Positions 1 through 14,012 of a stretch of DNA of 14,012 bases are shown in pieces; the stretch's first letter is position 1, and every line of letters begins with the position of its first letter. Made by a program: the position numbers and the translations under genes. Under the pieces are notes generated by a model. The model searched no databases. It was not told the origin of the DNA and saw nothing but the letters and a program-made list of their open reading frames with translations. This DNA comes from an archaeon (GTDB lineage Archaea > Iainarchaeota > Iainarchaeia > Iainarchaeales > Iainarchaeaceae). The stretch lies in assembly GCA_035289485.1 (NCBI GenBank), contig DATDXA010000064.1, positions 1 through 14,012 of the forward strand, in the 5' to 3' direction.

Positions 1-1617
1 GTTGTGCACTGCCCAAATCTTCTTTGAAAGCTCGTGGTCAAAGCCCATTTCCTGGAACATGGTGATTTTTTCCTTGTCCTTTGGCTTGACCTTGCCCTCA
101 AAGTGGCTCTTGATAAGTTTTTCCAAAACCTCCGGAGGAATTGGCTCTGCTTTCATCTTGAGCCTGTTGTGCTTGTTCGGGCTTTTTGCTTCGACCACCG
201 GAGACTTCTTGTTCATGGTCTCGTGATAAACCACAATCGGCGGAGAAACAGTAATCGCAACATTGTGATGCTTTTCTATTCTGTACTGGTTAATTTCAAG
301 GTGCAGCTCTCCCATTCCCGAAAGCAGGTGCTCCCCGGTTTCCTGATTAATTGTCGCGCGCAAATTTGGGTCCTCTTTAGTTAGCTGCCTTATAACTTCA
401 ATCAGTTTTGGCAAATCCTTTGTGCTCTTTGCCTCAATCGAAACAGTCATCACAGGCTCGACTTCAGTCATGAAACTTTCAAACGGCTTTATTTCCATAT
501 CCGAAATTGTTTCTCCCGCATAAACTTCTTTCAATCCAACAAGCGCAACAATGTTTCCTGCAGGCACTGTGGTTGCCTCAACAAAATCCTCTCCCATGAA
601 AAGGCCGATTTTTTGCGTGTAAACTTCTTTATGGCTTCCAACAAGCTTTACTTTTGTGCCCCTTGTGACTTTCCCAGAATATACCCTTCCGGTTGCAATG
701 TCTCCTGAGTGCTTGTCAACACTGACATCCGTAACCATCATTGTGAATGGGCCTGTTTCATCGCAATGCTGCATTGCCTTGCCCTCTGCACTTTCAATGT
801 CCCCTTTCCATACAACCGGCATCCTGTAGCCCTGCGCCTGAATTGGATTTGGAAGGTGCTGGATAATTAATTCAAAAATTGCTTCAGAGAGCTTGCTTTT
901 TGCAGAGAGTTCTTTTTGATTGTCGCTTTTGAGGTACTCATAAACCTGCTTGAACGAAATTCCTGTTTGCGCCATGCGCGGAACTGAAATCGCCCACTTG
1001 TTGTATGCGCTTCCAAACATTACCGAGCCGTCCTGCACCTTGACCTGCCATTTTTCCTCAAATTCTTTCGGGACGTTTTTTCTTATAAGCGTGTTGACGT
1101 GCGTGATGACTTTCATGAACCTCTCCTGCATCTGCTGCTCTGTTAGCTGCAGCTCGTTAATCAGGCGGTCAACCTTGTTGATGAAAAGAACCGGCCTTAC
1201 GTATTCGCGCAGAGCCTGGCGAACAACAGTTTCAGTCTGAGGCATCACTCCCTCGACCGCATCAACAACTAGTATTACTCCGTCAACTGCTCTCATTGCC
1301 CTTATGACTTCCCCTCCAAAGTCAACGTGCCCCGGAGTATCAATGAGATTTACCAGATGGTCAGTTCCTTTGTAATTGTAGAGAAGTGAGATGTTTGCTG
1401 CGTTAATTGTTATTCCGCGCTCCTGCTCCTGGTCCTCATAATCCATTACCCTTTGCTGGCCTGCGAGTTCCTCACTCATAAGCCCAGAAGCCGCAATGAG
1501 AGAATCGGCAAGAGTGGATTTTCCGTGATCGATATGGGCAACTATTCCCATGTTTCTGATGTTTAGCCTTGTATTCATCAGTTTTTCTGCAAGCTTTACA
1601 ACATCTTCCTTCTTCAT
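1..1617 (-). CDS. fusA: Elongation factor EF-2, N-terminal 539 codons (runs off the left edge; absent from the ORF track)
   Basis: Manual translation from ATG at 1617 gives MKKEDVVKLAEKLMNTRLNIRNMGIVAHIDHGKSTLADS, with RGITI, DTPGHVDF, NKVD and GMGELHLE motifs. GAGGTG lies 7 nt upstream of the ATG, and the gene follows rps7. Confidence 0.98.
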   Translation of the reverse strand, partial: MKKEDVVKLAEKLMNTRLNIRNMGIVAHIDHGKSTLADSLIAASGLMSEELAGQQRVMDYEDQEQERGITINAANISLLYNYKGTDHLVNLIDTPGHVDFGGEVIRAMRAVDGVILVVDAVEGVMPQTETVVRQALREYVRPVLFINKVDRLINELQLTEQQMQERFMKVITHVNTLIRKNVPKEFEEKWQVKVQDGSVMFGSAYNKWAISVPRMAQTGISFKQVYEYLKSDNQKELSAKSKLSEAIFELIIQHLPNPIQAQGYRMPVVWKGDIESAEGKAMQHCDETGPFTMMVTDVSVDKHSGDIATGRVYSGKVTRGTKVKLVGSHKEVYTQKIGLFMGEDFVEATTVPAGNIVALVGLKEVYAGETISDMEIKPFESFMTEVEPVMTVSIEAKSTKDLPKLIEVIRQLTKEDPNLRATINQETGEHLLSGMGELHLEINQYRIEKHHNVAITVSPPIVVYHETMNKKSPVVEAKSPNKHNRLKMKAEPIPPEVLEKLIKSHFEGKVKPKDKEKITMFQEMGFDHELSKKIWAVHN

Positions 1618-1742
1618 CCCGAGACACCTCTCGGGAGGAGGTGCCCTATCTCCTTGCGAACCTCTTGGTTCGCGAGGCCTCCCAGAACTTTGTTCTGGAA
1701 GGTCGCTTGGGCTCGATAGGCCTTACTCACTTCGTTCACCAT
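1618..1742 (-). repeat. Structured intergenic element, copy A (upstream of EF-2; carries a 51-nt two-hairpin insertion)
   Basis: mRNA strand GGCCTATCGAGC...AGATAGGGCACCTCCTCCCGAGAGGTGTCTCGGG-ATG; shares the CCTATC/GATAGG stem and 3' hairpin architecture with copies B-D. Confidence 0.85.
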
Positions 1743-1786
1743 AAAATCAAATCCTCAAATTCAATATGAACTGCAAAAATGCACGT

Positions 1787-2431
1787 TTACCTTGATGCCT
1801 TTGCAATCCTTTCTACCTCATCGCGCCTCTTTACGCTAAAGCTCGTGTTCTCTTCTCCGGCCGCGGAGATTAGCTCTTTTGCGAGCGCTTCAGCCGCGCT
1901 TGTCTTGTTATTGAACGAGCCTGAAAATGCCGCAAGCGCGAGATTCTTAAGTGACTCATCAACCTTCTTTAGCGGCGCCACATCAACTGAAACAGTGTAA
2001 GATACTCCGCCCCTTGAAATCCTTGTGACATCTTCTCTAGGTCCCGCGTTCTGAATCGCATCCACAAGAACCTGCAGGGGGTTTTTCATGGTCCTTTTTT
2101 CAACAAGTTCAAATGCCTCTTCAACAATGTGCATTGCCATTATTTTCTTTCCAGTTCCGCCCCTTCCGCGGATGTATTTTCCGGAGAGCTTTCTCTTTCC
2201 CTGGCCGCTTCTCATGATTTTGTTGATTAATCTCTCAACAATGCTAAGCGAACCCTTCTCAAACCGGTGCCTTGTGCCCCTGCCAAATGTGTGCGGGATT
2301 TCCTTGCTCTTAAGGCTTACATACCTTCCAAGGCTTGGGTCGCGGACCGATACTTCTGAAGGATCATATTTTCCAAAAACAAAGAACGCGTGCGCGCTTC
2401 CCTTTTCAGCAGCTTTTTCAGTCATTCGCAT
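1787..2431 (-). CDS. rps7: 30S ribosomal protein uS7
   Basis: IVERLINKIMR, NPLQVLVDAIQNAGPRED and KRRDEVERIAKASR motifs; lies between rps12 and EF-2. Spacing from AGGTGA suggests the true start may be the second ATG (2425). Confidence 0.97.
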   Translation of the reverse strand: MRMTEKAAEKGSAHAFFVFGKYDPSEVSVRDPSLGRYVSLKSKEIPHTFGRGTRHRFEKGSLSIVERLINKIMRSGQGKRKLSGKYIRGRGGTGKKIMAMHIVEEAFELVEKRTMKNPLQVLVDAIQNAGPREDVTRISRGGVSYTVSVDVAPLKKVDESLKNLALAAFSGSFNNKTSAAEALAKELISAAGEENTSFSVKRRDEVERIAKASR

Positions 2432-2443
2432 TTCACCTAACTA

Positions 2444-2881
2444 TTACCTCTTCACTTTCTCCTTCTTTCCGGTCCTTAGCATCTGCAGTGCAATTCCATT
2501 TACATGCGTTACGCGGTATTTTACTCCCCAAAGGTCCCCTTTAGGCCCTCCTTGCGCTCCGCCTATTCCTTCAACCATAACCTCATCATGCTCATCAATG
2601 AACTTAATCGCCCCGTCCTTTGGCGCGAGCGCGGTCAGTTGCCTGCCGTTCTTTATGAGCTGCACTCTCACGCACTTTCGGATTCCCGAGTGCGGCTGCT
2701 TTGCTGTAACTCCCCTTTTTTCAAGCACAATTCCTTTTGCCTGGGGCGAGCCGTTCATCAGGTCTCCGCCCTTATCGTGCATTCGCGCGTTCATTTTCTT
2801 TTTCCAGCGCCTGTCCTTTTTTCGCCACTTCTTCCTTCTCTTTTCAAGTGCCCTTGCTGCAAATTCCCCTGCCATAAACAT
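2444..2881 (-). CDS. rps12: 30S ribosomal protein uS12
   Basis: [21 protein letters not shown] and FIDEHDEV motifs of archaeal uS12; start is ATG at 2881 or 2875. Confidence 0.97.
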
Positions 2882-2886
2882 CAAAC

Positions 2887-2967
2887 TCCGATCTGCTCAT
2901 CGGAAGGGAGCACCCAATCTTCGGCCTTTTGGCCTCGATTGGCTTTGCCCACTCCGTTCGCATAAAA
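2887..2967 (-). repeat. Structured intergenic element, copy B (upstream of rps12)
   Basis: mRNA strand GCCAATCGAGGCCAAAAGGCCGAAGATTGGGTGCTCCCTTCCGATGAGCAGATCGGA; same architecture as copies C/D with compensatory changes. Confidence 0.85.
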
Positions 2968-2975
2968 CTCCATTT

Positions 2976-3392
2976 TCACCTAATCCTTACCTCTTCAATC
3001 CCGTAATTTCTTTTCGCGAGCTCCTTAACTCTTTTCAATCTCCTCATATTCTGCAAAATTATTTTCTTGTTTGTCGCATCAACGCTGACAATCGCAATCT
3101 TGCTATCCTTCATATCCTTTATTTCGACTTTCACAATTTTTGCCTTGAAAAAAGCCCTTTCAAAGAACTTCTCCGGCTGCTCTGTGTATTCAAAGAGCTC
3201 TACTCTTTTTCCAATCCTTTTTTTGAGCAGCTCAACAGTTGAGCCGCTCTTTCCGATTGCCCTGTTCATGTCCTTTTCAGGAATGAGGAAAACCACGCTG
3301 TCGCCCTCGACAAAGCAGTCCCTCGCGCTCACCTTCGCGATCGCATCAAGCGCGTTCATCATTTGAATCTGCGAGATGTCAAGCAACTTCAC
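2976..3392 (-). CDS. nusA: Archaeal NusA (KH-domain transcription factor)
   Basis: AIGKSG KH motif and GKRVELFEY; C-terminal KELAKRNYGIEEVRI; conserved position between rpl30e and rps12; GTG start with GGTG upstream. Confidence 0.93.
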   Translation of the reverse strand: MKLLDISQIQMMNALDAIAKVSARDCFVEGDSVVFLIPEKDMNRAIGKSGSTVELLKKRIGKRVELFEYTEQPEKFFERAFFKAKIVKVEIKDMKDSKIAIVSVDATNKKIILQNMRRLKRVKELAKRNYGIEEVRIR

Positions 3393-3404
3393 AAAACACC
3401 ACGC

Positions 3405-3710
3405 TTACTTCTCGATTTCAAGAACCCTGCTCTTGCCCGCGTCCTCGATTGCCATCGCACTTATCGTGAAAGGCTTTCCGCAGACACTTCCAAGTTCAAT
3501 TCCTGTTCCTTCAAAGACGAAATGCGGTGTTTTGCCGTTTTCCGCAAAAGAAACGAGCTTTTCGCTTGTTATCTGGGGCGCGTTTTTCGCGATTATTATT
3601 AGCTTTGCGGAACCATTTTTAAGGCTTTTCTCCGCCTGCTGCGTGCCAAAAACGACCTTTCCTGTGTCCACTGCCCTTCTGATTTCCTTTGGTGCATCAA
3701 CGTTTGCCAT
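3405..3710 (-). CDS. rpl30e: 50S ribosomal protein eL30
   Basis: AVDTGKVVFG, AKLIIIAKNAP and ELGSVCGKPF...IEDAGKS motifs. Confidence 0.97.
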   Translation of the reverse strand: MANVDAPKEIRRAVDTGKVVFGTQQAEKSLKNGSAKLIIIAKNAPQITSEKLVSFAENGKTPHFVFEGTGIELGSVCGKPFTISAMAIEDAGKSRVLEIEK

Positions 3711-3848
3711 TTTTTATCCAATCCTGTAAAATATCCGAAATTCCGCGAAAAGCCAAAAGGTCAAATAAGAACCAGAACTAAATCCGGCCCTACTCCGCCA
3801 AAATGGCTTCTCAAGGCGTAATTTAACAAGGAATATTGCTGATGAAGG

Positions 3849-3862
3849 TTTATAATGGTTTG
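3849..3862 (-). promoter_or_regulatory. Candidate TATA box (CAAACCATTATAAA on the minus strand) for an rpl30e-nusA-rps12-rps7-EF-2 transcript
   Basis: TTATAAA about 140 nt upstream of the rpl30e start. The motif also reads as a TATA box on the plus strand, so its direction is uncertain. Confidence 0.4.
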
Positions 3863-3876
3863 TTGAATGCCTTTGG

Positions 3877-4704
3877 CTAATCTACCAGCGTTTCTAAAGT
3901 GAACCGTAAATCATAATTTCTGTTGGATTCATCAAAAGGCACTAAAACTTTAACAAGTCCCGTATCAGTATGCTGGCCTTTTGAAGCGTCCAATACTGGG
4001 CTGTCTACCCCATTTACGGAAGGCGTGACAACAATATCACAATAAATTGTTTGCATTGGTTTTAATCCCCGAGAGCCGCAGCCGGGGTTGGTATTATATT
4101 GTGGATAATATGGAGGGTAATCTTTGGAAAAAAAACTTCCAGTGCCGGGAACGCCTATTATGATTGGGACTGTAAAATCTCCAATATTCTTAACTGCAAT
4201 TCTTTTTTCTTCGGATTTTTTTTGATTATTTAATTCGAACGTCAATTCATTAGGTGTCAATTCTATACCAATGTCCCTTTCTGGCAACAAATTAACTTTA
4301 CACACGGCTCCCTTATCGCCCTTTTTAAAATTTTGGTCTAGAAAGCCGCACACTTCTATTGTCTTCCCTTCATAGATTGTTTTCAATGTGACTTCTTTTG
4401 AAAGTTCATACGGGCCAGCCTTTCTTTGTTCAGGTGGGCCATAATTGACCTGGTCAATTACAGTACCTGCAGAATTGTCATAAACTTTGTAATAAATGTC
4501 ATTTCTATTCGAGATTATCTTTATCGTAACCCACGAATAATAGGCACCGCTGAATTCGTTGGTGGAAATCTCTAGACTATTGTCAAATTTCTCGGTAGCC
4601 CAACTGGCATCAAATGAAAAATCCGAATCATCTACCGAATTGTTTACATTGCAGCCCACAAGGAACACCGATGCCAGCGCAATCACGGCAAGAAATTTCT
4701 TCAT
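3877..4704 (-). CDS. Predicted lipoprotein / surface protein with a probable C-terminal Ig-like domain
   Basis: 275-aa ORF with signal peptide MKKFLAVIALASVFLVGC ending in a lipobox Cys. C-terminal IAVKNIGD...LKPMQTIYCDIVVTP resembles Ig-like beta-sandwich patterns (inference). Confidence 0.8.
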   Translation of the reverse strand: MKKFLAVIALASVFLVGCNVNNSVDDSDFSFDASWATEKFDNSLEISTNEFSGAYYSWVTIKIISNRNDIYYKVYDNSAGTVIDQVNYGPPEQRKAGPYELSKEVTLKTIYEGKTIEVCGFLDQNFKKGDKGAVCKVNLLPERDIGIELTPNELTFELNNQKKSEEKRIAVKNIGDFTVPIIIGVPGTGSFFSKDYPPYYPQYNTNPGCGSRGLKPMQTIYCDIVVTPSVNGVDSPVLDASKGQHTDTGLVKVLVPFDESNRNYDLRFTLETLVD

Positions 4705-4794
4705 CAGAAATTAATTGTCGGGGGGGGTATAATAATATGCCGAATCTTGTTATGTTGAAGTTCTTGAGCTCTTTAATTCCCTTCCCCAAACACG

Positions 4795-4823
4795 TTTTTA
4801 TAGTATTACTATGGTAATACTAT
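4795..4823 (+). promoter_or_regulatory. TA promoter TATA box (TTTTTATA) overlapping a perfect 10-bp inverted repeat, probable operator
   Basis: ATAGTATTAC-TATG-GTAATACTAT at 4800-4823, followed by GGAGGT and the ATG at 4837. Confidence 0.75.
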
Positions 4824-4836
4824 TGGAGGTATTTTT

Positions 4837-5022
4837 ATGGATGTGATTCCGGCAAAGTTCACGCCAAAGCTCACGGTCGAGATTGATGCGCTCGTGAAGG
4901 AAGGCTGGTATGCCAACCGCAGCGAGGCTATTCGCGATGCCGTACGCGACCTTGTAAAGAAGATGAAAGCCGAGCGCCTTGAGGCGGCAATTAAGGAGGA
5001 CGTTGAATGGGGCCTAAAATAA
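4837..5022 (+). CDS. Ribbon-helix-helix (CopG/Arc/MetJ) protein, putative antitoxin
   Basis: IDALVKEGWYANRSEAIRDAVRDL matches the RHH pattern; strong SD (GGAGGT); overlaps the downstream PIN gene. Confidence 0.88.
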   Translation: MDVIPAKFTPKLTVEIDALVKEGWYANRSEAIRDAVRDLVKKMKAERLEAAIKEDVEWGLK

Positions 5023-5480
5023 TCGCTGTCATTGACGCTGGCCCTCTTATTCATCTTGCCGAAATAGGGGCACTGAAGGCGCTTGAGGCATTTTCGCTAA
5101 TTACTCCAGGCGGGGTTGTCGAGGAAGTGAGGTCGTTTCCCGGAGGGATTAAGGTAGTTGACAATTATGACAAGAATCTTGTAAGCGCACTCCAGAATGA
5201 ATTCTCACTCGGGCTTGGCGAGAGCCAATGCATTGCGCTTGCAAAGGCGGAAAAAATCGTGATTTTCCTAACTGATGATCTTGATGCGAGAACAACCGCC
5301 CTGAGTCTTGGGCTTGAGCCGCACGGGACAATTGGGATACTGCTGAAGGCATTCAAGCTCGGCTTGCTGGGCAAAAAGGATGCAATCGAATTTGTGAAGA
5401 GGCTCAAATCTTCCTCTTCGCTTTATATAACCTCAGAACTTGTTGGGTATATTCTGCAAAAAATAGAAACGGAAAAATAG
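5007..5480 (+). CDS. PIN-domain (VapC-like, DUF3368-type) putative ribonuclease toxin
   Basis: AVIDAGPLIHL, LGLGESQCIALA, FLTDDLDAR and GTIGILL motifs with the acidic PIN residues; GGAGG SD inside the antitoxin gene; 16-nt overlap. Confidence 0.88.
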   Translation: MGPKIIAVIDAGPLIHLAEIGALKALEAFSLITPGGVVEEVRSFPGGIKVVDNYDKNLVSALQNEFSLGLGESQCIALAKAEKIVIFLTDDLDARTTALSLGLEPHGTIGILLKAFKLGLLGKKDAIEFVKRLKSSSSLYITSELVGYILQKIETEK

Positions 5481-5517
5481 TGCATTTCTGAGTGCCCAGA
5501 AAATGATTTGCAATCAG

Positions 5518-6747
5518 CTACTTCTTCATCACAAGGCTAACGCGCCCGGTCCCAACCTTTATCGGCTGGCCGACAATTATGTTCTCAACAACCCCTTCAA
5601 GGTTCTCGATTTCACCGCTAAAGCTTGCCTCAAGAAGGTGCTTAACTGTTTCTTCAAAAGATGCCCTTGCGAAAGGAGATGATTTGCCCCTTGTAATTCC
5701 GGTTCTTACAATTCCTCTGATTTCCCCGTCAAATGTCATAAGGTCAGCGAGAAGCATTATGTGGCGGATATCAATTGAAATCCCGTTCTCCTTGAGAACC
5801 CCGTCAAGTTCGTTTACAATTGCCATTCTTCCAGCTTCAATTCCCATTACCGCGCTGATTTCTTTTATGTCATTTGTAGTGGTGCGGCCGCCATCAACTT
5901 CAGGAAGCTTTACAACCGCCTTGAGGTTGGTTCCCCTTGTCTTTATGACGCTCTCTCCGTCTTCTTTTGAAAGTATGACCTTCTCTATTCCGCGCACACC
6001 CTGTATCCTTACATTGCGCAGCTTGTTTAGCGTCCTTCTGATTTTCAGGAGCGGCTCGTTTTTGAAAGTGAAATCAATAATGTTCTTTTCCCTGCGCTTT
6101 GCATCCTTTTTGAGATGCTTCTCTATTTTTGAAATCAAATCCTCGGTGTTGACATTTCTTGAGCTGATTGCATCGCGGTCAAGTTCGATTGTGACCTTGC
6201 TCTTTAGCAAATCCTCAGTGACCTTAATCACATCATCAATTCTGACATCAATTAGTGTCTTTGCGTACGCATCAAGTTTTTCCGCGTCCTTTTTGAGAAG
6301 CGGATCCGCGATGTAAATTGTCATTGTCGGGTATTTTGCCTTGCTTCTTCCATCAACGATTTCCTCAACCCTCTGAATTCCTGAACCTACCGAGACTTCT
6401 GCTGAACCCGCGTAGTGCTTTGTTCTAAGTGTTAGTTGCGTTCCGGGCTCTCCGAGAGATTGCGCCGTGATAATTCCCACAGCCTCGCCGGGTTCCACCT
6501 TGAGCGTTTCAAAGTGCGCGGTAATTCTTTCAAGCAGCTGCTCTCTATCCTTTGTTTTGAGCTTTAGCTCATCTGCAACCACATTGAATTCATCGGCAAC
6601 TTTTTTAGGCAGGCCTTCCTCATTAAACATCTCGCCGCTCGCATAAACCCTTTCAAAAACAGGTTCAACTTCAACGGGCTTTTTAGGGGCCTTCGGCTTC
6701 TTTGGCGCCTTAGGTTTTTTTTCCTTGTGCTCTTTTTTTGCTGCCAT
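5518..6747 (-). CDS. rpoA2: DNA-directed RNA polymerase subunit A'' (Rpo1C)
   Basis: [39 protein letters not shown] and [14 protein letters not shown] motifs. Confidence 0.98.
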
Positions 6748-6791
6748 TCAAATCACATTCCACAAAATCCAATCATTTCTGCCCTATCAAA

Positions 6792-9404
6792 TCACTTGCT
6801 CTTCATCTTTTCGTATTCCCTCTTAACCGAAATGCTCTTTCCCTTGAAGGACTTTTCAGGGAACACTCCGTCCTCTCCGTACCTGTATTGTATAATGTTC
6901 TTGTTTGCGGTCCTTACTGTTCCGTCATTAACAACAACCAAATCCTTTAGTGAATTCGCAAGCCTTCTGTACAAATATCCTGAGACCTTTGTTGAAACAC
7001 CTGTGTCGACTTCTCCTTGCCTTCCACCCATTGTGTGGTAGAAGTATTCCTTGCTCTCCATTCCTTCCATGAAGTTATGCGTTATGAATCCGCCGGCATC
7101 AATTCCGACATCGCTTCTCCTGTTGAGCCCGATAAGCCTGTTTCTAAATCCTCTTTTAGGCCTGCCTTCCCTAACGGATGCCTGTCCCCACATTCCTGAA
7201 AGGTTTGTAAGGTTGAGTACGGATCCTCTTGACCCTGAAAGTATCATGATGTTGCTGTTAAACTCTGGCTTTTCAACCATTACGCTTTCAACAATTTCCT
7301 TGAGGATGTGCTTTTGTATTTTCTCCTTCGCCCCGAATGCGGCTCTCATCATGTAAATCTCAAAGCTCTCGTTGTAAGTTCTTCCGGGGATTGTTTCAAT
7401 CTGGTTCTTGTGGAACTTCTTTACAACTTCTCCGGCATCATGCCTCATTTCCTCAACAACTTTTTCTCTTAGCTTTAGAACCTTCAGGCTTGGAGCGTAC
7501 TCTTCAAGGCTTACAGTCATTCCAACTTCTGCAATGAAGCTTGAAATAATCTTTGAGACCTTGTCGTAAAATTCAGTTAGCACCGCAGGAGGGTACTCTC
7601 TTGCAATGGCGTCAACGAGCTTTCCTTTTCCTTCACCAAGGCTCATCGAGTCAATGACCCCGCTCTTTAGCTGCCCCTTCTCGATTTTCACGATAAGGTC
7701 ATTCTCGTACGGGTCCTTGAGCGCAGGATGGTTAGGGTCAAGGCCCTTTACATGATTGTAAAATCTTGTCTTGTATTCCATGTTCAAATCCTTTGGAAGC
7801 AGCTGCGAGAAAATCAGCTTTCCGCTGTACTTGTCCTTGCCAACATCCGGCTTTGGAATATCCTCAAGCCCCATTATCTGGAAGTAGCGGAATGCCTGCT
7901 CTTTTGTGAGCACGGTTTGCTTAAGAGTTAGAATGAAGCAGCCTGAAACTCCGTCTTCGTCAAGAATAATTACCGGCGCTCCGTACCTTGGCGAGATGAA
8001 CTGCTTTTCAACTAGCATTAGTTCAGAAGCTTCCGCAATTCCTTCGGGGGTCTGCGGCACGTGCATGTTCATTTCATCGCCATCAAAGTCGGCGTTATAG
8101 GGCTTGCACACAATCGGATTGAGCCTGAAAGTTTTTCCCGGCATAATCTTTGCGTAGTGCGCCATCATTGAAAGCCTGTGAAGCGAAGGCTGCCTGTTGA
8201 AAAGTACTATGTCCCCGTTGCGCAGTTTTCTCTCGACCTTGTAGCCCGGCCCAAGTTCTTTAAGTATGTCTTCCTTGTTCACATCTCCAAGCTTTTTTCT
8301 CATCCCGTCTGCTCTGATAACATAAACGACTTTTCCGTCGTTGATTAGCTGCTTGCATGCCTCAATGTTGTTTGCCGTGACCATTTCAGGAACTGTCATG
8401 TTTTCTGCGATTTCTTGCGGCACTCCGAGCTGATTGATTGAAATCATCGGGTCCGGAGTGATAATTGATCTTGCAGCGAAGTTGACGCGCTTTCCTGTGA
8501 GGTTATACCTAAACCTTCCTTTCTTTCCCTGCAATCTCTGAACAAGCGTGCGAAGAGCCCTTCCGCTCCTGTGCTTTGCTGGCGGCACTCCTGCCGTGTT
8601 GTTGTTGAAATAAGTGGTCACGTGGTACTGGAGCAAATCCCAGAGGTCCTCAATGATTAGCTGCGGCGCTCCCGCATCGATGTTGTCCTTGAGCCTCATG
8701 TTTATTCTTATAATATCAACAAGCTTGTGCGTCAAATCATCTTCGCTCTTTATTCCTGATTCGAGCGTGATGCTTGGCCTTAAATTAATTGGCGGCACCT
8801 GCAGAACCGTCATTATGAACCACTCAGGCCTTAGTTTTCCCTTCTCATATCCAAAAAACTCGAGGTCCTGGTCTGGAATCTTCTCAACCCATTCCCTAAT
8901 CTGTGTTGGGTAAATCCTGTCTTTATCAATGTAAAAGTTGGTCGGCTTGTCAAGCGAGATTACTTTTCTCTCGTGCGCGCAGTGAGGGCATTTCTTTGCC
9001 TTTCTCGCCCTTGTGAGTATTTTCTTTGCAATATCAAGAGAATCATCGCCGATGTAAATCTTGAGCTGCTCAAGCTTGTCATCGGGCATTGCGATTCTTC
9101 CGCAGCCCTGGCATGTTGCCTGCATGAGAACTTCAAGCTTTTTTCCAAATTCACTGTGGCATACAGGCCTTACCATTTCAATATGCCCAAAGTGCCCCGG
9201 GCACTTCTTCATTGTGTTTCCGCATGTTTTGCAGCGAAGCCCCGGGTTGATTACTCCGAGGTGGTTATCCATTAAGCCGCCTTCCATTGGAAAGCCGTCC
9301 TTATCGTAAGTTTCCGGGCTCTTGGTTTCAATCGCAGACATCTTCCTGATTTGTTCTGGCGAGAGTATTCTGAATTCAACAGCCTTGATTCTTTTGAGCA
9401 TCAT
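6792..9404 (-). CDS. rpoA1: DNA-directed RNA polymerase subunit A' (Rpo1N)
   Basis: Catalytic NADFDGD, CPGHFGHIE, FNRQPSLH and GKRVNF motifs. Confidence 0.99.
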   Translation of the reverse strand: MMLKRIKAVEFRILSPEQIRKMSAIETKSPETYDKDGFPMEGGLMDNHLGVINPGLRCKTCGNTMKKCPGHFGHIEMVRPVCHSEFGKKLEVLMQATCQGCGRIAMPDDKLEQLKIYIGDDSLDIAKKILTRARKAKKCPHCAHERKVISLDKPTNFYIDKDRIYPTQIREWVEKIPDQDLEFFGYEKGKLRPEWFIMTVLQVPPINLRPSITLESGIKSEDDLTHKLVDIIRINMRLKDNIDAGAPQLIIEDLWDLLQYHVTTYFNNNTAGVPPAKHRSGRALRTLVQRLQGKKGRFRYNLTGKRVNFAARSIITPDPMISINQLGVPQEIAENMTVPEMVTANNIEACKQLINDGKVVYVIRADGMRKKLGDVNKEDILKELGPGYKVERKLRNGDIVLFNRQPSLHRLSMMAHYAKIMPGKTFRLNPIVCKPYNADFDGDEMNMHVPQTPEGIAEASELMLVEKQFISPRYGAPVIILDEDGVSGCFILTLKQTVLTKEQAFRYFQIMGLEDIPKPDVGKDKYSGKLIFSQLLPKDLNMEYKTRFYNHVKGLDPNHPALKDPYENDLIVKIEKGQLKSGVIDSMSLGEGKGKLVDAIAREYPPAVLTEFYDKVSKIISSFIAEVGMTVSLEEYAPSLKVLKLREKVVEEMRHDAGEVVKKFHKNQIETIPGRTYNESFEIYMMRAAFGAKEKIQKHILKEIVESVMVEKPEFNSNIMILSGSRGSVLNLTNLSGMWGQASVREGRPKRGFRNRLIGLNRRSDVGIDAGGFITHNFMEGMESKEYFYHTMGGRQGEVDTGVSTKVSGYLYRRLANSLKDLVVVNDGTVRTANKNIIQYRYGEDGVFPEKSFKGKSISVKREYEKMKSK

Positions 9405-9485
9405 TTCAACCGCTGCTCCGGTTGGGAGAGCGCCCTATCTTCGGCTTGAGCCTCGATAGGCCTTGCTTCATGCCCGACATTTTCC
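9405..9485 (-). repeat. Structured intergenic element, copy C (upstream of rpoA')
   Basis: mRNA strand GGCCTATCGAGGCTCAAGCCGAAGATAGGGCGCTCTCCCAACCGGAGCAGCGGTTGAA-ATG; 60 of 65 positions match copy D by manual alignment. Confidence 0.92.
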
Positions 9486-9513
9486 GTAATTACACATTTT
9501 CCAATCATGTCAT

Positions 9514-11334
9514 TCACACCTTGTCCGTCAAAATCAATTTCGGGTAAACTCCGAGCGCCTTCAGCTCGTCAAGCAAAAGCTTGAACCCATAGCTCATCTC
9601 AACCGGGTAAATCTTTGAATCATTCACTTCAAGCACGCGCTTTGTCTTTCTTATCTGGTCCTCAAACCCTATCACTCCTGCGGTTTCTGAAACCCACATA
9701 GTGACCTTGTCTGAATCATCAATGAATTTTTCCTGCAAGAGCATTGCCGCTCCGTGCCCTACAAGTGTTTCTCCTTCCATCTCTCCAAACCTCAGGCCGC
9801 CTTCTTTCTCTTTTCCTTCGGTTGGCTGCCTTGTCAGTATCTGCACAGGTCCGCGTGCCCTTGACTGTATCTTATGCGCTGTCATGTGGAAGAGCCTTCT
9901 ATAAGCTACAACTCCTGTAAAAATTTCTCCCTTAATTCTCTGCCCCGTGGTTCCGTCGTAGAAAACTTCCTTGCCATTTGGCTTAAAGCCCGCCTTGTGA
10001 AGCATTGCCTCGATATCTTCTTGCGGCGTTCCGGTGAACGGGGTTCCGTCAATTTGCTCGGCCTTTAGCGAAGCCGCCTTTCCGCCAAGCATCTCAAGCA
10101 AATGCCCAATTGTCATTCTGGAAGGGACCGAGTGCGGGTTCAGTATCAAATCCGGCTTAATTCCATCCGGCGTAAATGGCATGTCCTCTTCAGGAACAAT
10201 CAAGCCAACAACCCCTTTCTGCCCGTGCTTTGAGCTGAACTTGTCCCCGAGCGAAGGAATTCTTTCGCTTCTGATTTTTATTTTCACAAGCTTGTTTCCC
10301 GCGTCGGATTCTGTAACATAAATCTTGTCAACGTGCCCTTCCTTGCCTTTTCTGATTGTAACCGAAGCTTCCCTTCTCTTCTCCTGCACAACACCGAATT
10401 CATTTATCTCCTCAAGGAATCTTGGAGGCGATGTCTTTCCAATCACAACATCATTTTCTCCGATATAGGATTCAAGCTGTATTATTCCATCTTCGCCGAG
10501 TTTTTTGTAAGCTTCAGCGCCCAAAAATCCAACCGTGTCCTCTGGAGGGATTTCGAACTTGTCAATCTGCCCGCCCGGATACCTGTTCTCGGAGCTTTCA
10601 TATACTCTAAAGTAGCTGCTCCTTCCAAGCCCGCGGTCAACCGCGCCCTTGTTCAATACAACAGCATCAAGGATGTTGAATCCGTAAGGCATTATTGCAA
10701 CAACAAAGTTCTGCACCTGCGGCCTCTCATTGAGGCCGATTATGTCCTCGATCTTGGTTTTTACAAGCGCCTTCTGCGGATAATACAAAAGGAAGCTTTC
10801 CGTGTCAGTTCTGAAATTGTAATTGCTTGCGGCAAACCCTTGCGCCTGCTTAAACATCTTGGCCCCGTGCAGCGCCTTTCCTGCCATGTTGTGCTCGAGG
10901 TAGGGAATCATTGCGCTGATTATGCTAAGAATTGCCGCGCCGTCAATTTCAAGGTGCGTGTGCTCTTTTGTGAGCTCGTCAATTTTTGCCGCAATGAAAG
11001 CGTTCTCTTCCTCTTCGGCATCAAGGTATTCAATGTATCCCTGCTCTACAAGATCATTCCAAGTAAGTTTTCCTTCGCGCAGCTGCTTTAGCTGCTCATC
11101 GCCAAGTTTTATTTTGCCGCCATCAACAACAACAAGCGGGCGCTGCACCCTTCCTGCGTCCGTGTTTATGTAAACTTCATTCGTGTCCTCGTGGTATGCG
11201 ACATTTATCTGCTCAGACATCTTGTTCTCGCGCCTGCGGCCTATGATTTCGCGCGTGAGCTTAATTGGGTCATTGTGAAACCCAATCAGCCTTCCGTTAA
11301 TGTAAATTTTTGCATTTTTTGCGCTTTCAGCCAT
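9514..11334 (-). CDS. rpoB1: DNA-directed RNA polymerase subunit B' (Rpo2C)
   Basis: GDKFSSKHGQKG, PDLILNPH, TRQPTEG and GGLRFGEME motifs. Confidence 0.98.
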   Translation of the reverse strand: MAESAKNAKIYINGRLIGFHNDPIKLTREIIGRRRENKMSEQINVAYHEDTNEVYINTDAGRVQRPLVVVDGGKIKLGDEQLKQLREGKLTWNDLVEQGYIEYLDAEEEENAFIAAKIDELTKEHTHLEIDGAAILSIISAMIPYLEHNMAGKALHGAKMFKQAQGFAASNYNFRTDTESFLLYYPQKALVKTKIEDIIGLNERPQVQNFVVAIMPYGFNILDAVVLNKGAVDRGLGRSSYFRVYESSENRYPGGQIDKFEIPPEDTVGFLGAEAYKKLGEDGIIQLESYIGENDVVIGKTSPPRFLEEINEFGVVQEKRREASVTIRKGKEGHVDKIYVTESDAGNKLVKIKIRSERIPSLGDKFSSKHGQKGVVGLIVPEEDMPFTPDGIKPDLILNPHSVPSRMTIGHLLEMLGGKAASLKAEQIDGTPFTGTPQEDIEAMLHKAGFKPNGKEVFYDGTTGQRIKGEIFTGVVAYRRLFHMTAHKIQSRARGPVQILTRQPTEGKEKEGGLRFGEMEGETLVGHGAAMLLQEKFIDDSDKVTMWVSETAGVIGFEDQIRKTKRVLEVNDSKIYPVEMSYGFKLLLDELKALGVYPKLILTDKV

Positions 11335-11412
11335 TCAACCGCTGCTCCGGTTGGGGGAGCGCCCTATCTTCGCCTTGGGGCTCGATAGGCCGTGCTTCGC
11401 ACCAACATTTCC
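11335..11412 (-). repeat. Structured intergenic element, copy D (between rpoB'' and rpoB')
   Basis: mRNA strand GGCCTATCGAGCCCCAAGGCGAAGATAGGGCGCTCCCCCAACCGGAGCAGCGGTTGA-ATG; near-identical to copy C. Confidence 0.92.
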
Positions 11413-11426
11413 AAATGCATTAAGTG

Positions 11427-12893
11427 TCATTTCAATTTCACTCCCATGTCCTTGAGAAGCTTCTCAACCGGCTCCTCTTCCGCTTCCGTTGTGACCTGCG
11501 CGAGCATTGCAAGATTCTTTACAAGCCCACACTGCGGCCCATCAGGCGTTTCGATTGCGCAGAGCCTTCCCCAGTGCGTTCCGTGAACATCACGGGCCTC
11601 ATAAAGTTCCCTGTTCTTGTCAAGCGGCGATTTTACTTTTCTCAAATCGGTCAGAGGCGAGAGGAAATTTACGCGATCCATGAACTTTGAAACTCCTGTG
11701 GCTCTTCCTATCCAATTTCCCGTGCTCATTGCAAACCTTATGCGTTCCGAAACCGCTCCTGGCCTTACAATCGTTGAAATGTTGAGCTTCCTTCTCCTTG
11801 TAACGGTCCTGTCAATCTGGAATTTGAGGTCCTTGATGAAATATTTGAAGCTGTATCTGAAAAGGTGCTCCATTAGTTTTCCTGAAAGCTCAAGCCTCTT
11901 GTTAGAGTAATGGTCCTTATCGTCCTGCTCCCTTAAATTGTACGCCCTTTCAACGGCTTTGGTTGCCATCATCACAAGGTAGTAAGCCTTTGCAAGCCTG
12001 TTTTTAGAATCCTGGCCGATGTGCGGCAAGAGGAACGCATCTATAACTTCTTGCGCCCTTCTGAGCCTGTACTCTTCAACCTGCCCGGGCGCTACAAACT
12101 TTCCAATCTTATCAAGAGCTTCCTTCTCGCTTTTTACAAGCAGGTTTTCGTTATTAATCATGACATCGTTTTGGATTTCTTTCTGGTCAATGAATGCATC
12201 CGTGATTGCCTGCGGGGTTTTGAGCCCGAGAGCTTTTAGAAGAACAAAAAGTTTTAGTTTTCGCGGCGAAGCCGGGAATGTAACTCCAAGAGTTCCATCA
12301 GGGCTTCTTATGATTCTTACCCTTCCCTTGAAGGCCCCTCTTGTGCTGATAACTTCAGCGACGATTTTATCGGACTGCTCGGAAACAATTACCCTGTCTG
12401 AAGCAAGAACTTCCTGGGTCATGAGCGCCTTTTCCGAGCCGTTGATTATGAAGTAGCCGCCAAAATCCATCGAGTCCTCTCCCATTTCAACAAGTTCCTC
12501 GCCGGTCTTTCCATTGAGCCAGCAAAGGTTTGATTTGAGCATCACCGGAAGCTCTCCGATGTAAGTTTCCTTCTTGTCCTGCTCAACATCCCTTCTAAGC
12601 AGCCTCATTGTGAGATGTATCGGGCTTGAATATGTCCTGTTGCGCAGGCGCGCTTCCATCGGCAAAAATCTCTGCCGCGGGGAGCCATCGGCTTCAACAA
12701 TCTGCGGCTTGCGCACGGATATTTTTTCAAATTCAACGCGCACTTCCTCAATTTTCGGAGTGACCTCGTTGTTTTCAACAATGATTTCTGGCAGCTTCTT
12801 TTCCACGAACTGGTTGAAGGAATCAATCTCCATTTTGGCGATGCTCCTGTCCCTGAAGTAGGAATTGATAACAGACCAGCCATCAAATGTCAT
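11427..12893 (-). CDS. rpoB2: DNA-directed RNA polymerase subunit B'' (Rpo2N)
   Basis: EARLRNRTYS, GGYFIINGSEK, DDKDHYSNKRL and ETPDGPQCGLVKNLA motifs; ATGA overlap with the rpoH stop. Confidence 0.98.
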   Translation of the reverse strand: MTFDGWSVINSYFRDRSIAKMEIDSFNQFVEKKLPEIIVENNEVTPKIEEVRVEFEKISVRKPQIVEADGSPRQRFLPMEARLRNRTYSSPIHLTMRLLRRDVEQDKKETYIGELPVMLKSNLCWLNGKTGEELVEMGEDSMDFGGYFIINGSEKALMTQEVLASDRVIVSEQSDKIVAEVISTRGAFKGRVRIIRSPDGTLGVTFPASPRKLKLFVLLKALGLKTPQAITDAFIDQKEIQNDVMINNENLLVKSEKEALDKIGKFVAPGQVEEYRLRRAQEVIDAFLLPHIGQDSKNRLAKAYYLVMMATKAVERAYNLREQDDKDHYSNKRLELSGKLMEHLFRYSFKYFIKDLKFQIDRTVTRRRKLNISTIVRPGAVSERIRFAMSTGNWIGRATGVSKFMDRVNFLSPLTDLRKVKSPLDKNRELYEARDVHGTHWGRLCAIETPDGPQCGLVKNLAMLAQVTTEAEEEPVEKLLKDMGVKLK

Positions 12894-13431: not shown

Positions 13432-14012
13432 ATGAAAGAAGAAAATCTCGGCCTTGCCCTTCTGATTGCAAAAAAAGCCGGGCTTTTTGGCAGCGCATTT
13501 GCCTCAACTTCCGAGCTCGCAACCCTCACAGGGTATTCGCAGCAGTCCATTTCACGCAAATTAAGGGAACTTGAATCTGAAGGCGTGCTTTCGCGAAAGG
13601 TTTCCAATTCCGGAATCGAAATCGCGCTCACTGAAAAAGGCCGCAAGGAGCTCGAATCCTTCTACCTCGAGCTTGGGGAAATATTTTCAAAAAAGAAGAA
13701 TGTCTCGCTTAGCGGAAAGGTCCTAAGCGGCCTTGGCGAAGGGACATATTACACCTCAATTCCGCAGTACAAAAAGCAGTTCAAGGACCTTTTGGGCATG
13801 GATATTTTCCTCGGCACCCTAAATTTGGAAGTGAACCCAAGTGAGCGCGCGCTTTTCACGAACTCGGCGCCAATAAAAATCGAAGGCTTCAAAACAGAGC
13901 AGCGCACCTTTGGCGGAATCGATTGCTGGAAATGCACGGTGAACGGCAAAGTTGAAGCCGCGGCAATTCTCCCGCACCGCACAAACCATCCTGCAAATAT
14001 TATTGAAATCAT
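13432..14012 (+). CDS. ribK: CTP-dependent riboflavin kinase with N-terminal winged HTH (RbkR-type); runs off the right edge
   Basis: Manual translation from ATG 13432: STSELATLTGYSQQSISRKLRELESEG (HTH), then GKVLSGLGEGTYY...YKKQFKDLLG..FLGTLN of the archaeal riboflavin kinase. TTTTTTAAG about 24 nt upstream suggests a leaderless transcript. Confidence 0.92.
   Translation, partial: MKEENLGLALLIAKKAGLFGSAFASTSELATLTGYSQQSISRKLRELESEGVLSRKVSNSGIEIALTEKGRKELESFYLELGEIFSKKKNVSLSGKVLSGLGEGTYYTSIPQYKKQFKDLLGMDIFLGTLNLEVNPSERALFTNSAPIKIEGFKTEQRTFGGIDCWKCTVNGKVEAAAILPHRTNHPANIIEI

Follow-up and report, generated by a model that had tools for sequence, protein, structure and literature searches.

Four gene junctions of one archaeal operon raise the question of why folded sequences of some length should stand directly before the start codons of essential genes. 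The window, that is, the whole stretch of DNA analysed here (14,012 nucleotides (nt); contig DATDXA010000064.1 of assembly GCA_035289485.1, from a member of the Iainarchaeota), carries four related structured elements, designated A to D, before the genes of elongation factor 2 (EF-2), rps12, rpoA' and rpoB'. A previous reading of the sequence alone (the sequence-only reading) had left two explanations side by side, a repeated cis-regulatory RNA that coordinates the translation of RNA polymerase (RNAP), ribosome and elongation genes, and a small non-autonomous mobile element that targets gene starts. The analysis presented here indicates that elements A to D are probably insertions of a small mobile structured repeat which has spread through the Iainarchaeota, and not a dedicated regulator of four genes.

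Four Copies in One Operon

The genome of the window (G000) comprises 1.16 Mb in 64 contigs and is 90% complete; its relatives are numbered from G001 onward. The rpo-to-EF-2 genes of the operon are all encoded on the minus strand, and the four long spacers between them (169, 91, 109, and 92 nt) house one element each. The coordinates were re-read from the sequence, and all four elements were found where they had been reported, on the minus strand and in messenger RNA (mRNA) orientation. The copies and their parts are listed below, with P1 for the outer stem and P3 for the stem of the 3' hairpin.

1618 to 1742, minus strand: copy A, the long variant, at the rps7/EF-2 junction (sequence; predicted fold -58.1 kcal/mol, z = -4.7)
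1722-1715 with 1650-1643, minus strand: P1 of copy A, enclosing a junction of two extra hairpins
1643-1638, minus strand: pseudoknot 5' strand of copy A, CACCUC
1635-1629 with 1624-1618, minus strand: P3 of copy A
1630-1625, minus strand: GAGGUG of copy A, similar to a Shine-Dalgarno (SD) sequence and paired with CACCUC; the ATG at 1617 follows the element immediately
2887 to 2973, minus strand: copy B, at the junction of the NusA-like KH gene and rps12 (sequence; model match 78.6 bits)
2944-2937 with 2919-2912, minus strand: P1 of copy B (CCAATC/GATTGG), with the tip hairpin at 2934-2923
2911-2908, minus strand: pseudoknot 5' strand of copy B
2904-2899 with 2892-2887, minus strand: P3 of copy B, with its loop at 2898-2893
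9407 to 9508, minus strand: copy C, at the rpoB'/rpoA' junction (sequence; model match 87.7 bits)
9462-9455 with 9439-9432, minus strand: P1 of copy C, with the tip hairpin at 9452-9443 and the pseudoknot 5' strand at 9431-9428
9424-9419 with 9412-9407, minus strand: P3 of copy C, with its loop at 9418-9413, followed by AA and the ATG at 9404
11336 to 11430, minus strand: copy D, at the rpoB''/rpoB' junction (sequence; model match 83.9 bits; pair counts)
11430-11428, minus strand: ATG of copy D, overlapping the rpoB'' stop and followed by the 5' extension
11391-11384 with 11368-11361, minus strand: P1 of copy D, with the GA/GAA internal loop and the tip hairpin at 11381-11372
11360-11357, minus strand: pseudoknot 5' strand of copy D, GCUC
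11353-11348 with 11341-11336, minus strand: P3 of copy D, with the loop GAGCAG at 11347-11342, of which GAGC pairs with GCUC

The 3' hairpin lies 0 nt from the ATG in copy A, 1 nt in copy D, and 2 nt in copy C, while GTTTG stands between hairpin and ATG in copy B; in copy A the SD-like GAGGUG within the pseudoknot is located 7 nt before the ATG. The stems described previously were read again with the same letters, namely, the outer stem CCTATC/GATAGG in A, C, and D and CCAATC/GATTGG in B, the inner hairpin GGC-TCAA-GCC in C, GCC-CCAA-GGC in D, and GGCC-AAAA-GGCC in B, and the 3' hairpin CAACCG/CGGTTG in C and D, TCCGAT/ATCGGA in B, and CCCGAGA/TCTCGGG in A. The downstream genes had been named as those of EF-2, S12, RpoA', and RpoB', and Pfam agrees. 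Contigs from four DNA runs span copies A, B, and D, and among the joints listed none omits an element.

A Stem with a GA/GAA Loop and a Pseudoknot

Aligned copies share one plan: a 5' extension comes first, then an outer stem of 8 base pairs with a variable tip, and finally an H-type pseudoknot on the 3' side, the element closing with the last helix of this pseudoknot. The 5' extension is single-stranded and conserved, and the letters at its end are often CGAAGCAAG-like. The outer stem contains a conserved 2x3 internal loop formed by GA in the 5' strand and GAA in the 3' strand, and the tip hairpin is variable, being replaced by a two-hairpin junction in copy A and in at least three other G000 copies (C5, C16, and C31). 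The pseudoknot forms when the 4-6 nt directly 3' of the outer stem base-pair with the 3' hairpin's loop, as GCUC/GAGC in B, C, and D and as CACCUC/GAGGUG in A. The pseudoknot, the conserved 5' extension, and the two-hairpin junction of copy A are three features beyond the earlier description.

The pairing statistics were obtained from an alignment of 81 distinct copies from many genomes and were also counted on 56 copies. Among the 81 copies 94.9% of cells pair, whereas shuffles reach 68.0% and slid partners 33-42%; both sides change in 20 of 21 pairs, so that the selection on structure first proposed from four copies is borne out in a larger alignment. The pseudoknot helix pairs in 93.8% of cells, with all four of its pairs changing on both sides, and since this helix is outside the search model its pairing was not favoured by the alignment. 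Pairings of the G.U type outnumber those of the A.C type by 38 to 15 (binomial p = 0.002), which identifies the sense strand as the folding strand, either as RNA or as single-stranded DNA.

The plan is not kept in every copy. The loop-bearing stem is exchanged for a plain hairpin in several G000 copies (C18, C27, C21, and C31:79451), and the loop of the 3' hairpin is not SD-like in most copies (GAGCAG, ACGCAA); an SD-like GGAGGUG or GAGGUG in this loop, paired with a CACCUC-like strand, was seen in copy A, C22:27379, L049, L053, L054, and G003.

Several known structures were considered and rejected. In a kink-turn, the binding site of L7Ae/L30e proteins, tandem sheared G.A pairs come after a bulge of 3 nt and stand in register with the non-canonical stem, whereas in the element Watson-Crick pairs covary right beside the GA/GAA loop (columns 14-16 with 114-116), and these pairs define a 2x3 loop in the wrong register for a kink-turn. 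A bulge-helix-bulge intron seems unlikely, as the 5' and 3' ends of the element, compared by eye, are not complementary. The three reading frames are used inconsistently and stops occur in many copies, so the element encodes no conserved peptide and is non-coding. A common origin of the pseudoknot-only variants C43:15315 and C14:15699 was also rejected, as they have only 63 nt in common. The Rfam search of the whole window returned no match at E<=1, and copies C and A searched alone at E<=10 gave 18.4 bits at best against a gathering score of 50.

Copy Number and Spread

The first covariance model was built from 7 short copies, and it found 33 matches at E<=1 in the genome of the window, 29 of them at E<=0.01; of 22 further genomes belonging to the family, 19 had matches too. 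With an improved model 151 genomes sampled from the phylum Iainarchaeota were searched; 61 of them, from 16 of 29 families, contain the element, the copy number per genome ranging from 0 to 29.

Copies in G000 precede unrelated genes (pyrD-like and ndk-like, both read by eye) and four tRNAs (Leu-GAG, Trp-CCA, Lys-UUU, and Ile-UAU), and one copy follows tRNA-Tyr at a distance of 5 nt. For five copies the distance from their end to a recurrent promoter-upstream motif is 2-5 nt, and a few copies run antisense to neighbouring genes. By a crude open reading frame (ORF) call the 33 matches divide into 23 whose next downstream feature is on the same strand, 8 with this feature on the opposite strand, and 2 with none. 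The suggestion that the element targets gene starts stands insofar as start codons are hit; it is too narrow, as copies are also seen at the 5' ends of tRNAs, at the edges of promoters, and at the 3' ends of genes.

The promoter-upstream motif itself, CACCGGCACCGAAC(C/T)C, is found in G000 at roughly 30 places outside the window, about 10-15 nt upstream of TATA-like boxes, and is often preceded by the palindrome GTATGG-N5-CCATAC (examples at C38:1360, C5:26641, C4:10273, C14:15699, and C31:57232); it is probably a shared transcription-factor or promoter-upstream site. Tandem or nested copies of the element were also noticed, at L071 (G004) downstream of rpoB', L069 (G005), L043 (G008), and L039 (G005). 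In G005 a second pseudoknot domain lies within the 3' hairpin of the copy that precedes rpoA', in G004 several pseudoknot domains stand in succession, and in G008 a second copy begins 15 nt after the first, with a duplication starting exactly at the 3' end of the first copy.

Junction Occupancy in Related Genomes

If the element were a dedicated cis-regulatory leader that coordinates the translation of RNAP, ribosomal, and elongation-factor genes, for example, by hiding the ribosome-binding site (RBS) in the pseudoknot until a signal arrives, it would be expected before the same genes in related species. The rpoB' locus was fetched across the family as 16 complete loci, and the surroundings of rps12 were available from 22 genomes. 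According to the model a copy is present at the rpoB'/rpoA' junction in 6 of the 16 loci and at rpoB''/rpoB' in 4 of 16; by eye a few more divergent copies are seen at rpo loci than the model finds. Where the element is absent the rpoB'/rpoA' junction measures only 3-22 nt (G003, G006, G007, G010, and G022). Among the 22 genomes the nusA/rps12 junction is filled in G000, G016, and G017 and the rps7/EF-2 junction in G000 and G017, while the rps12/rps7 junction is filled in G001 and G003 and holds no copy in G000. Conserved placement before the orthologues of the window genes, as a gene-specific leader would show, was not found across species.

The fold and position of the window copies do agree with a regulatory leader: all four end 0-2 nt from a start codon or overlap it, an SD-like run is paired within the pseudoknot in copy A and several others, the covariation is strong, and copies before a uL22-like gene (read by eye) recur in G001, G003, and G021. 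The distribution, however, largely refutes this explanation, as most copies are antisense or have an unrelated gene, a tRNA, or a promoter motif after them, most relatives lack a copy at these junctions, the set of downstream genes is not conserved, and target duplications flank the element. A leader dedicated to these genes is consequently highly improbable, and the regulatory half of the sequence-only reading was not sustained, since unrelated genes, tRNAs, and promoter motifs are preceded by the same element and the junctions are variably filled. The mobile half fared better, given about 29 copies in G000, differences between orthologous sites, and flanking direct repeats of 12-41 nt.

Flanking Direct Repeats and Empty Sites

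The flanking repeats were detected by local alignment of the upstream flank with the downstream flank of each copy, and mismatched flank pairs served as control. A score of at least 12 was reached by 3 of 29 G000 copies (the 99th percentile of mismatched pairs was 10) and by 9 of 29 copies from relatives, compared with 6 of 812 mismatched pairs. The 12 repeats delimited in this way are 12, 17, 17, 19, 19, 20, 23, 25, 26, 27, 36, and 40/41 nt long, three of them being perfect (36, 25, and 19 nt), and the elements between them measure 63-132 nt. On the 3' side all 12 delimited copies stop at the final base (+/-2) of the 3' hairpin, whereas on the other side the length of the 5' extension ranges from 5 to about 30 nt. 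Terminal inverted repeats were found in none of the 12, where the scores of head against reversed tail were 3-7, as in shuffles.

The duplicated stretch often spans the stop/SD/ATG junction. It consists of SD and ATG plus 0-7 nt at C21:11360, L049, L050, and L060 and of the last codons and stop of the upstream gene at L070 and L075. The clearest comparison of occupied and empty states is offered by the G000 site C31:78966, which is empty in G001, G002, G005, and G006, with the flanking genes adjacent there. The empty spacer contains a single copy of a 23-nt stretch spanning the upstream stop and the downstream SD, and in G000 two copies of this stretch flank the element, each decayed in its no-longer-needed half. 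In G003 a separate insertion of another subtype is present at the ATG of the gene downstream of this site.

Short Frames across the Copies

Insertion between the cistrons of an essential operon must be tolerated, and the frames that run across the window copies suggest how this may be achieved. A spanning frame that ends on or next to the true ATG is found in 4 of 4 copies.

1614 to 1742, minus strand: 42-codon frame spanning copy A; GAGGA stands before its ATG, and its TGA overlaps the EF-2 ATG (ATGA)
2881 to 2973, minus strand: 30-codon frame across copy B, its ATG just after the stop of the NusA-like gene (AGGTGA) and its TGA overlapping an rps12 ATG
9401 to 9508, minus strand: 35-codon frame across copy C, its TGA overlapping the rpoA' ATG (ATGA); a 2-codon frame joins it to the rpoB' stop
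11335 to 11430, minus strand: 31-codon frame spanning copy D; its ATG overlaps the rpoB'' stop, and its TGA immediately precedes the rpoB' ATG (11334)

Similar spanning frames occur in three further operon-internal G000 copies (C21, C13, and C31:78966). As the repeat is elsewhere often a duplicate of SD and ATG or of a gene end, the ATG at the 5' edge of copies A to D is presumably a leftover start codon. Where the duplicated stretch spans such a junction, the two repeats divide its roles, the upstream repeat keeping the end of the preceding gene and the downstream repeat keeping the RBS and start of the next, and in this way the element survives inside the essential operons of a very compact genome. 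Ribosomes entering at the leftover ATG could unwind the pseudoknot, terminate, and re-initiate at the true start, by which the translational coupling otherwise broken by the insertion might be preserved. Selection for translatability was considered and rejected, as sense and antisense frames are equally open and a sense-specific signal is absent; the spanning frames of the window are therefore suggestive and not proof of selection for coupling.

Junctions with tRNA Genes

Twenty tRNA-adjacent copies were read, of which 12 precede tRNA-Ile(UAU), 5 precede tRNA-Trp, and the others precede tRNA-Leu and tRNA-Lys in G000 and a Ser-like tRNA in G001. In 20 of 20 the last helix is 0-2 nt from tRNA base 1, usually with a single A or U left, or shares base 1. 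Among 21 genomes, 10 have a strong and 3 a weak model match before tRNA-Ile(UAU), representing 5-6 genera, and before tRNA-Trp a copy is present in 5 of 13 genomes. Genomes of the same genus have empty sites, and the 3' hairpins are wholly different between genomes of one genus, which looks more like repeated insertion and turnover at one exact spot than slow compensatory drift.

A TATA-like motif is conserved upstream of the element and lies about 40 nt upstream of the tRNA in empty sites. With the usual archaeal promoter spacing transcription would start 15-20 nt before the tRNA, so base 1 would be marked only by RNase P processing. An abutment of this exactness would not be demanded by selection alone, and it hints that the junctions may form at RNA ends. 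Two observations concern the tRNA-Ile(UAU) locus itself: a promoter-like block (TTTAAAAACCTAATT and variants) is present upstream of this gene in nearly all 21 genomes (L115-L135), with the element or without it, and G011 and G018 have a divergent structured leader there that was missed by the model. A decayed duplicate of the 5' part of the tRNA, sought upstream of tRNA-adjacent copies, was rejected, as 7 of 8 cases were within controls and tRNA-Leu was marginal (2/29).

The same abutment might be read as the mark of an RNA-end-forming module, either a self-cleaving ribozyme or a nuclease recognition fold, that cuts at its own 3' edge and frees tRNAs and leaderless mRNAs. The position of the last helix at tRNA base 1 in all 20 copies fits this, as do the ends 0-2 nt before ATG in A, C, D, and C22:27379 and the compact pseudoknotted fold with invariant unpaired purines, which resembles that of small ribozymes. 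Nevertheless, RNase P RNA is present in G000 (RNaseP_arch match of 91.6 bits against a cut-off of 84), and tRNA 5' ends need no substitute; plain-hairpin variants without the loop-bearing stem persist (C18, C27, C21, and C31:79451), several copies are antisense or stand before the promoter motif, and the ribozymes of Rfam gave no match. A cutting function of this kind is accordingly improbable, and a replacement of RNase P in particular was rejected with the finding of its RNA, while the protein family HARP/PIN_5 was not found in the search.

Search for a Mover

A mobile repeat should have a mobiliser, and candidates were sought in up to 23 genomes of the family, all of them metagenome bins of 63-95% completeness. 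The integrase domain rve was detected only in G005. Among the 5 genomes tested for transposases, DDE_Tnp_1 was present in G000 (2), G021 (4), and G005 (1), and Y1_Tnp in G000, G005, and G021. Those of G000 are two genes of the IS4/IS5-type DDE class and a Y1 (HUH) gene that is incomplete and lies at the end of a contig (C29:36302-36838, C20:10502-11017, and C40:8017-8184), and none of them adjoins an element copy. Given the incomplete bins, the mobiliser may still be carried on an unbinned virus or plasmid.

The presence of these genes in G000, G005, and G021 is what speaks for an ordinary MITE (miniature inverted-repeat transposable element) moved in trans by a resident IS4/IS5-type DDE or Y1 HUH transposase. 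The delimited copies argue otherwise, as they have terminal inverted repeats in 0 of 12 cases and repeats that are not fixed and short but vary over 12-41 nt; no element-like sequence lies by the transposase genes; and G008 and G011, which possess the perfect 36- and 25-nt repeats, have no match to either transposase family, both genomes being 81-82% complete. Y1 elements are not known to make target duplications. An ordinary DNA MITE is therefore a decidedly unlikely description.

The precise 3' end, the variable 5' ends and repeat length, the fold of the sense strand, and the tRNA abutment point to a single-stranded, probably RNA, intermediate rather than to a cut-and-paste transposase. As one tentative and rather unlikely route, the element may spread through RNA without a dedicated reverse transcriptase, by way of an RNase P-released leader that is joined to other RNAs. 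From copies in tRNA leaders RNase P would free a stable RNA that keeps the pseudoknot and ends exactly with the last helix; this RNA would then become attached to the 5' terminus of a second processed RNA, for instance a mature tRNA or the start of an mRNA; and the chimera would be copied into the chromosome during the repair of a break or fork, the duplication extending from the RNA 5' end to the break. Such a route would account for the junction at tRNA base 1, a position set only by RNA processing, for the precise 3' end with variable 5' ends, for the variable duplications of 12-41 nt, and for the bias to sense orientation.

Several results weigh against mobile insertion or its RNA-mediated form and should be set beside the evidence given above. 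Flanking repeats are found in only 12 of 58 copies, and the four window copies have at most short, decayed repeats by eye. The very strong conservation of the fold and of the unpaired purines is also what is expected of a functional RNA, and the recurrence of the element at tRNA-Ile(UAU) over 5-6 genera could mean retained function instead of repeated insertion. Open frames are no rarer antisense than sense, at 1.91 of 3 on both strands (about 64%) versus 1.45 in shuffles. As to the machinery, the reverse transcriptase domain RVT_1 was found in 0 of the 23 family genomes, TnpB is absent above the cut-off in G000, where only a sub-threshold zinc-ribbon match of 17 bits was obtained, five transposase loci have no element-like sequence beside them (best E = 2), and G000 contains no multi-copy repeat of the size of an insertion sequence (IS), only a few two-copy paralogous segments.

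Genes and Other Features of the Window

Pfam supports the assignment of the window genes rpoH, rpoB'', rpoB', rpoA', rpoA'', the L7Ae/L30e-family gene, the NusA-like KH gene, rps12, rps7, and EF-2. The genes that adjoin the copies are as follows.

1 to 1617, minus strand: EF-2 gene, truncated by the window end, 3' of copy A (Pfam GTP_EFTU, EFG_III, EF-G_D2)
2444 to 2881, minus strand: rps12 (S12/S23), 3' of copy B, starting at ATG 2881 or 2875 (Pfam Ribosom_S12_S23)
6792 to 9404, minus strand: rpoA' (Rpb1 domains 1-5), 3' of copy C (Pfam)
9514 to 11334, minus strand: rpoB' (Rpb2 domains 4-7), between copy D on its 5' side and copy C on its 3' side (Pfam)
11427 to 12893, minus strand: rpoB'' (Rpb2 domains 1-3), 5' of copy D (Pfam)

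In G002, G004, and G005, which belong to the genus of the window's genome, the S12 protein (L168-L172) matches that of the window in two pieces, amino acids 1-69 and 66-142, both inside one uninterrupted frame of 617-667 amino acids, while rps12 of G000 has no such insert; the gene probably carries an intein of about 520 amino acids in these three genomes. Positions 3711-5517 of the window, about 1.8 kb, separate rpoA'' from the L7Ae/L30e-family gene and include two minus-strand ORFs without Pfam match (275 and 81 amino acids) and a plus-strand ORF of 157 amino acids whose match to DUF3368 (25.4 bits) falls short of the cut-off of 27.3. This region may be a foreign insert within the operon, perhaps toxin-antitoxin-like. 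At 13432-14010 on the plus strand, divergent from the rpo operon, a winged-helix domain is fused to a CTP-dependent riboflavin kinase domain (DUF120/RFKase).

Significance and Comparison with Known Systems

The DPANN archaea have genomes that are among the smallest and most compact known, and here a compact lineage of this group tolerates about 30 folded inserts of about 70 nt within essential operons for RNAP, ribosomal proteins, and EF-2 and before tRNAs. The repeat shows a route by which a selfish sequence can become harmless, in that it splits the stop/SD/ATG junction but also duplicates it, and the insert stays readable by ribosomes. It also presents a mechanistic puzzle, since the duplications are long and variable, the RNase P site is abutted exactly, inverted ends are absent, and 23 genomes yielded neither a reverse transcriptase nor a linked transposase; were an RNA intermediate at work, this mode of mobility would be one without a description in prokaryotes. 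In practical terms the copies lengthen apparently intergenic spacers and give rise to false upstream starts as well as small ORFs; gene prediction and the hunt for new regulatory RNAs in DPANN genomes will be misled by them.

The sequence-only reading did not recognise the element as a described family, and this judgement is upheld as far as the searches reached, with no match in Rfam and no description found in the literature, supplements and the cluster atlas of a 2026 preprint lying outside that survey. With MITEs the repeat shares small size, lack of autonomy, multiple copies, and flanking target duplications. It differs from them in having no inverted repeats and duplications of 12-41 nt, whereas by the definition given in PMC11602168 MITEs have inverted repeats no shorter than 10-15 bp at their termini and target duplications of 2-10 bp. 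The search for an autonomous relative, an IS sharing the ends of the repeat, gave nothing at the five transposase loci or among the repeats of G000, in genomes that are incomplete.

The dispersed repeats of bacteria, namely, REP/BIME, ERIC, the pneumococcal BOX/RUP, and the Correia elements of Neisseria, are short, non-coding, multi-copy, hairpin-forming sequences located in transcribed spacers beside genes, vary between strains, and sometimes alter expression signals, and in being short, structured, non-coding, and multi-copy beside genes the Iainarchaeota element resembles them. It differs in being archaeal, in folding on one strand as a stem plus an H-type pseudoknot, in lacking inverted ends, in its 12-41-nt duplications, and in its abutment on tRNA base 1. 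A REP/RAYT system was rejected, as Y1_Tnp is present in 3 of 5 genomes but is not flanked by copies, and the element is not a simple palindrome. The Rickettsia palindromic elements, selfish structured sequences of roughly 100 nt in a reduced genome, which are not known to have a transposase, are likewise tolerated at or in essential genes because they can be read through; they sit in frame within proteins, while the Iainarchaeota copies lie at cistron junctions bridged by short frames, and their fold and duplications differ.

The short interspersed nuclear elements (SINEs) of eukaryotes combine a precise structured 3' end, heterogeneous 5' ends, variable target duplications, and no inverted repeats with machinery encoded elsewhere, and variable duplications, a precise 3' end, and variable 5' ends were found in 12 of 12 delimited copies of the repeat. 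Unlike the products of SINE-type or target-primed retroposition, however, it has no A-tail or internal promoter, its host is archaeal, and RVT_1 occurs in 0 of 23 genomes. Long target duplications of variable length are also made by IS of the IS1634 type, but these are kilobase-sized and have inverted ends and their own DDE transposase. With the SD-sequestering pseudoknots of riboswitches the repeat shares an SD-like purine run paired a few nucleotides before the ATG in copy A and some others, whereas a conserved ligand pocket or gene set is absent and most loops are not SD-like. In summary, no described element family matches the repeat, as far as tested, and it is unusual among small structured repeats in its one-strand pseudoknot fold, its long variable duplications without inverted ends, and its exact abutment on the RNase P site.

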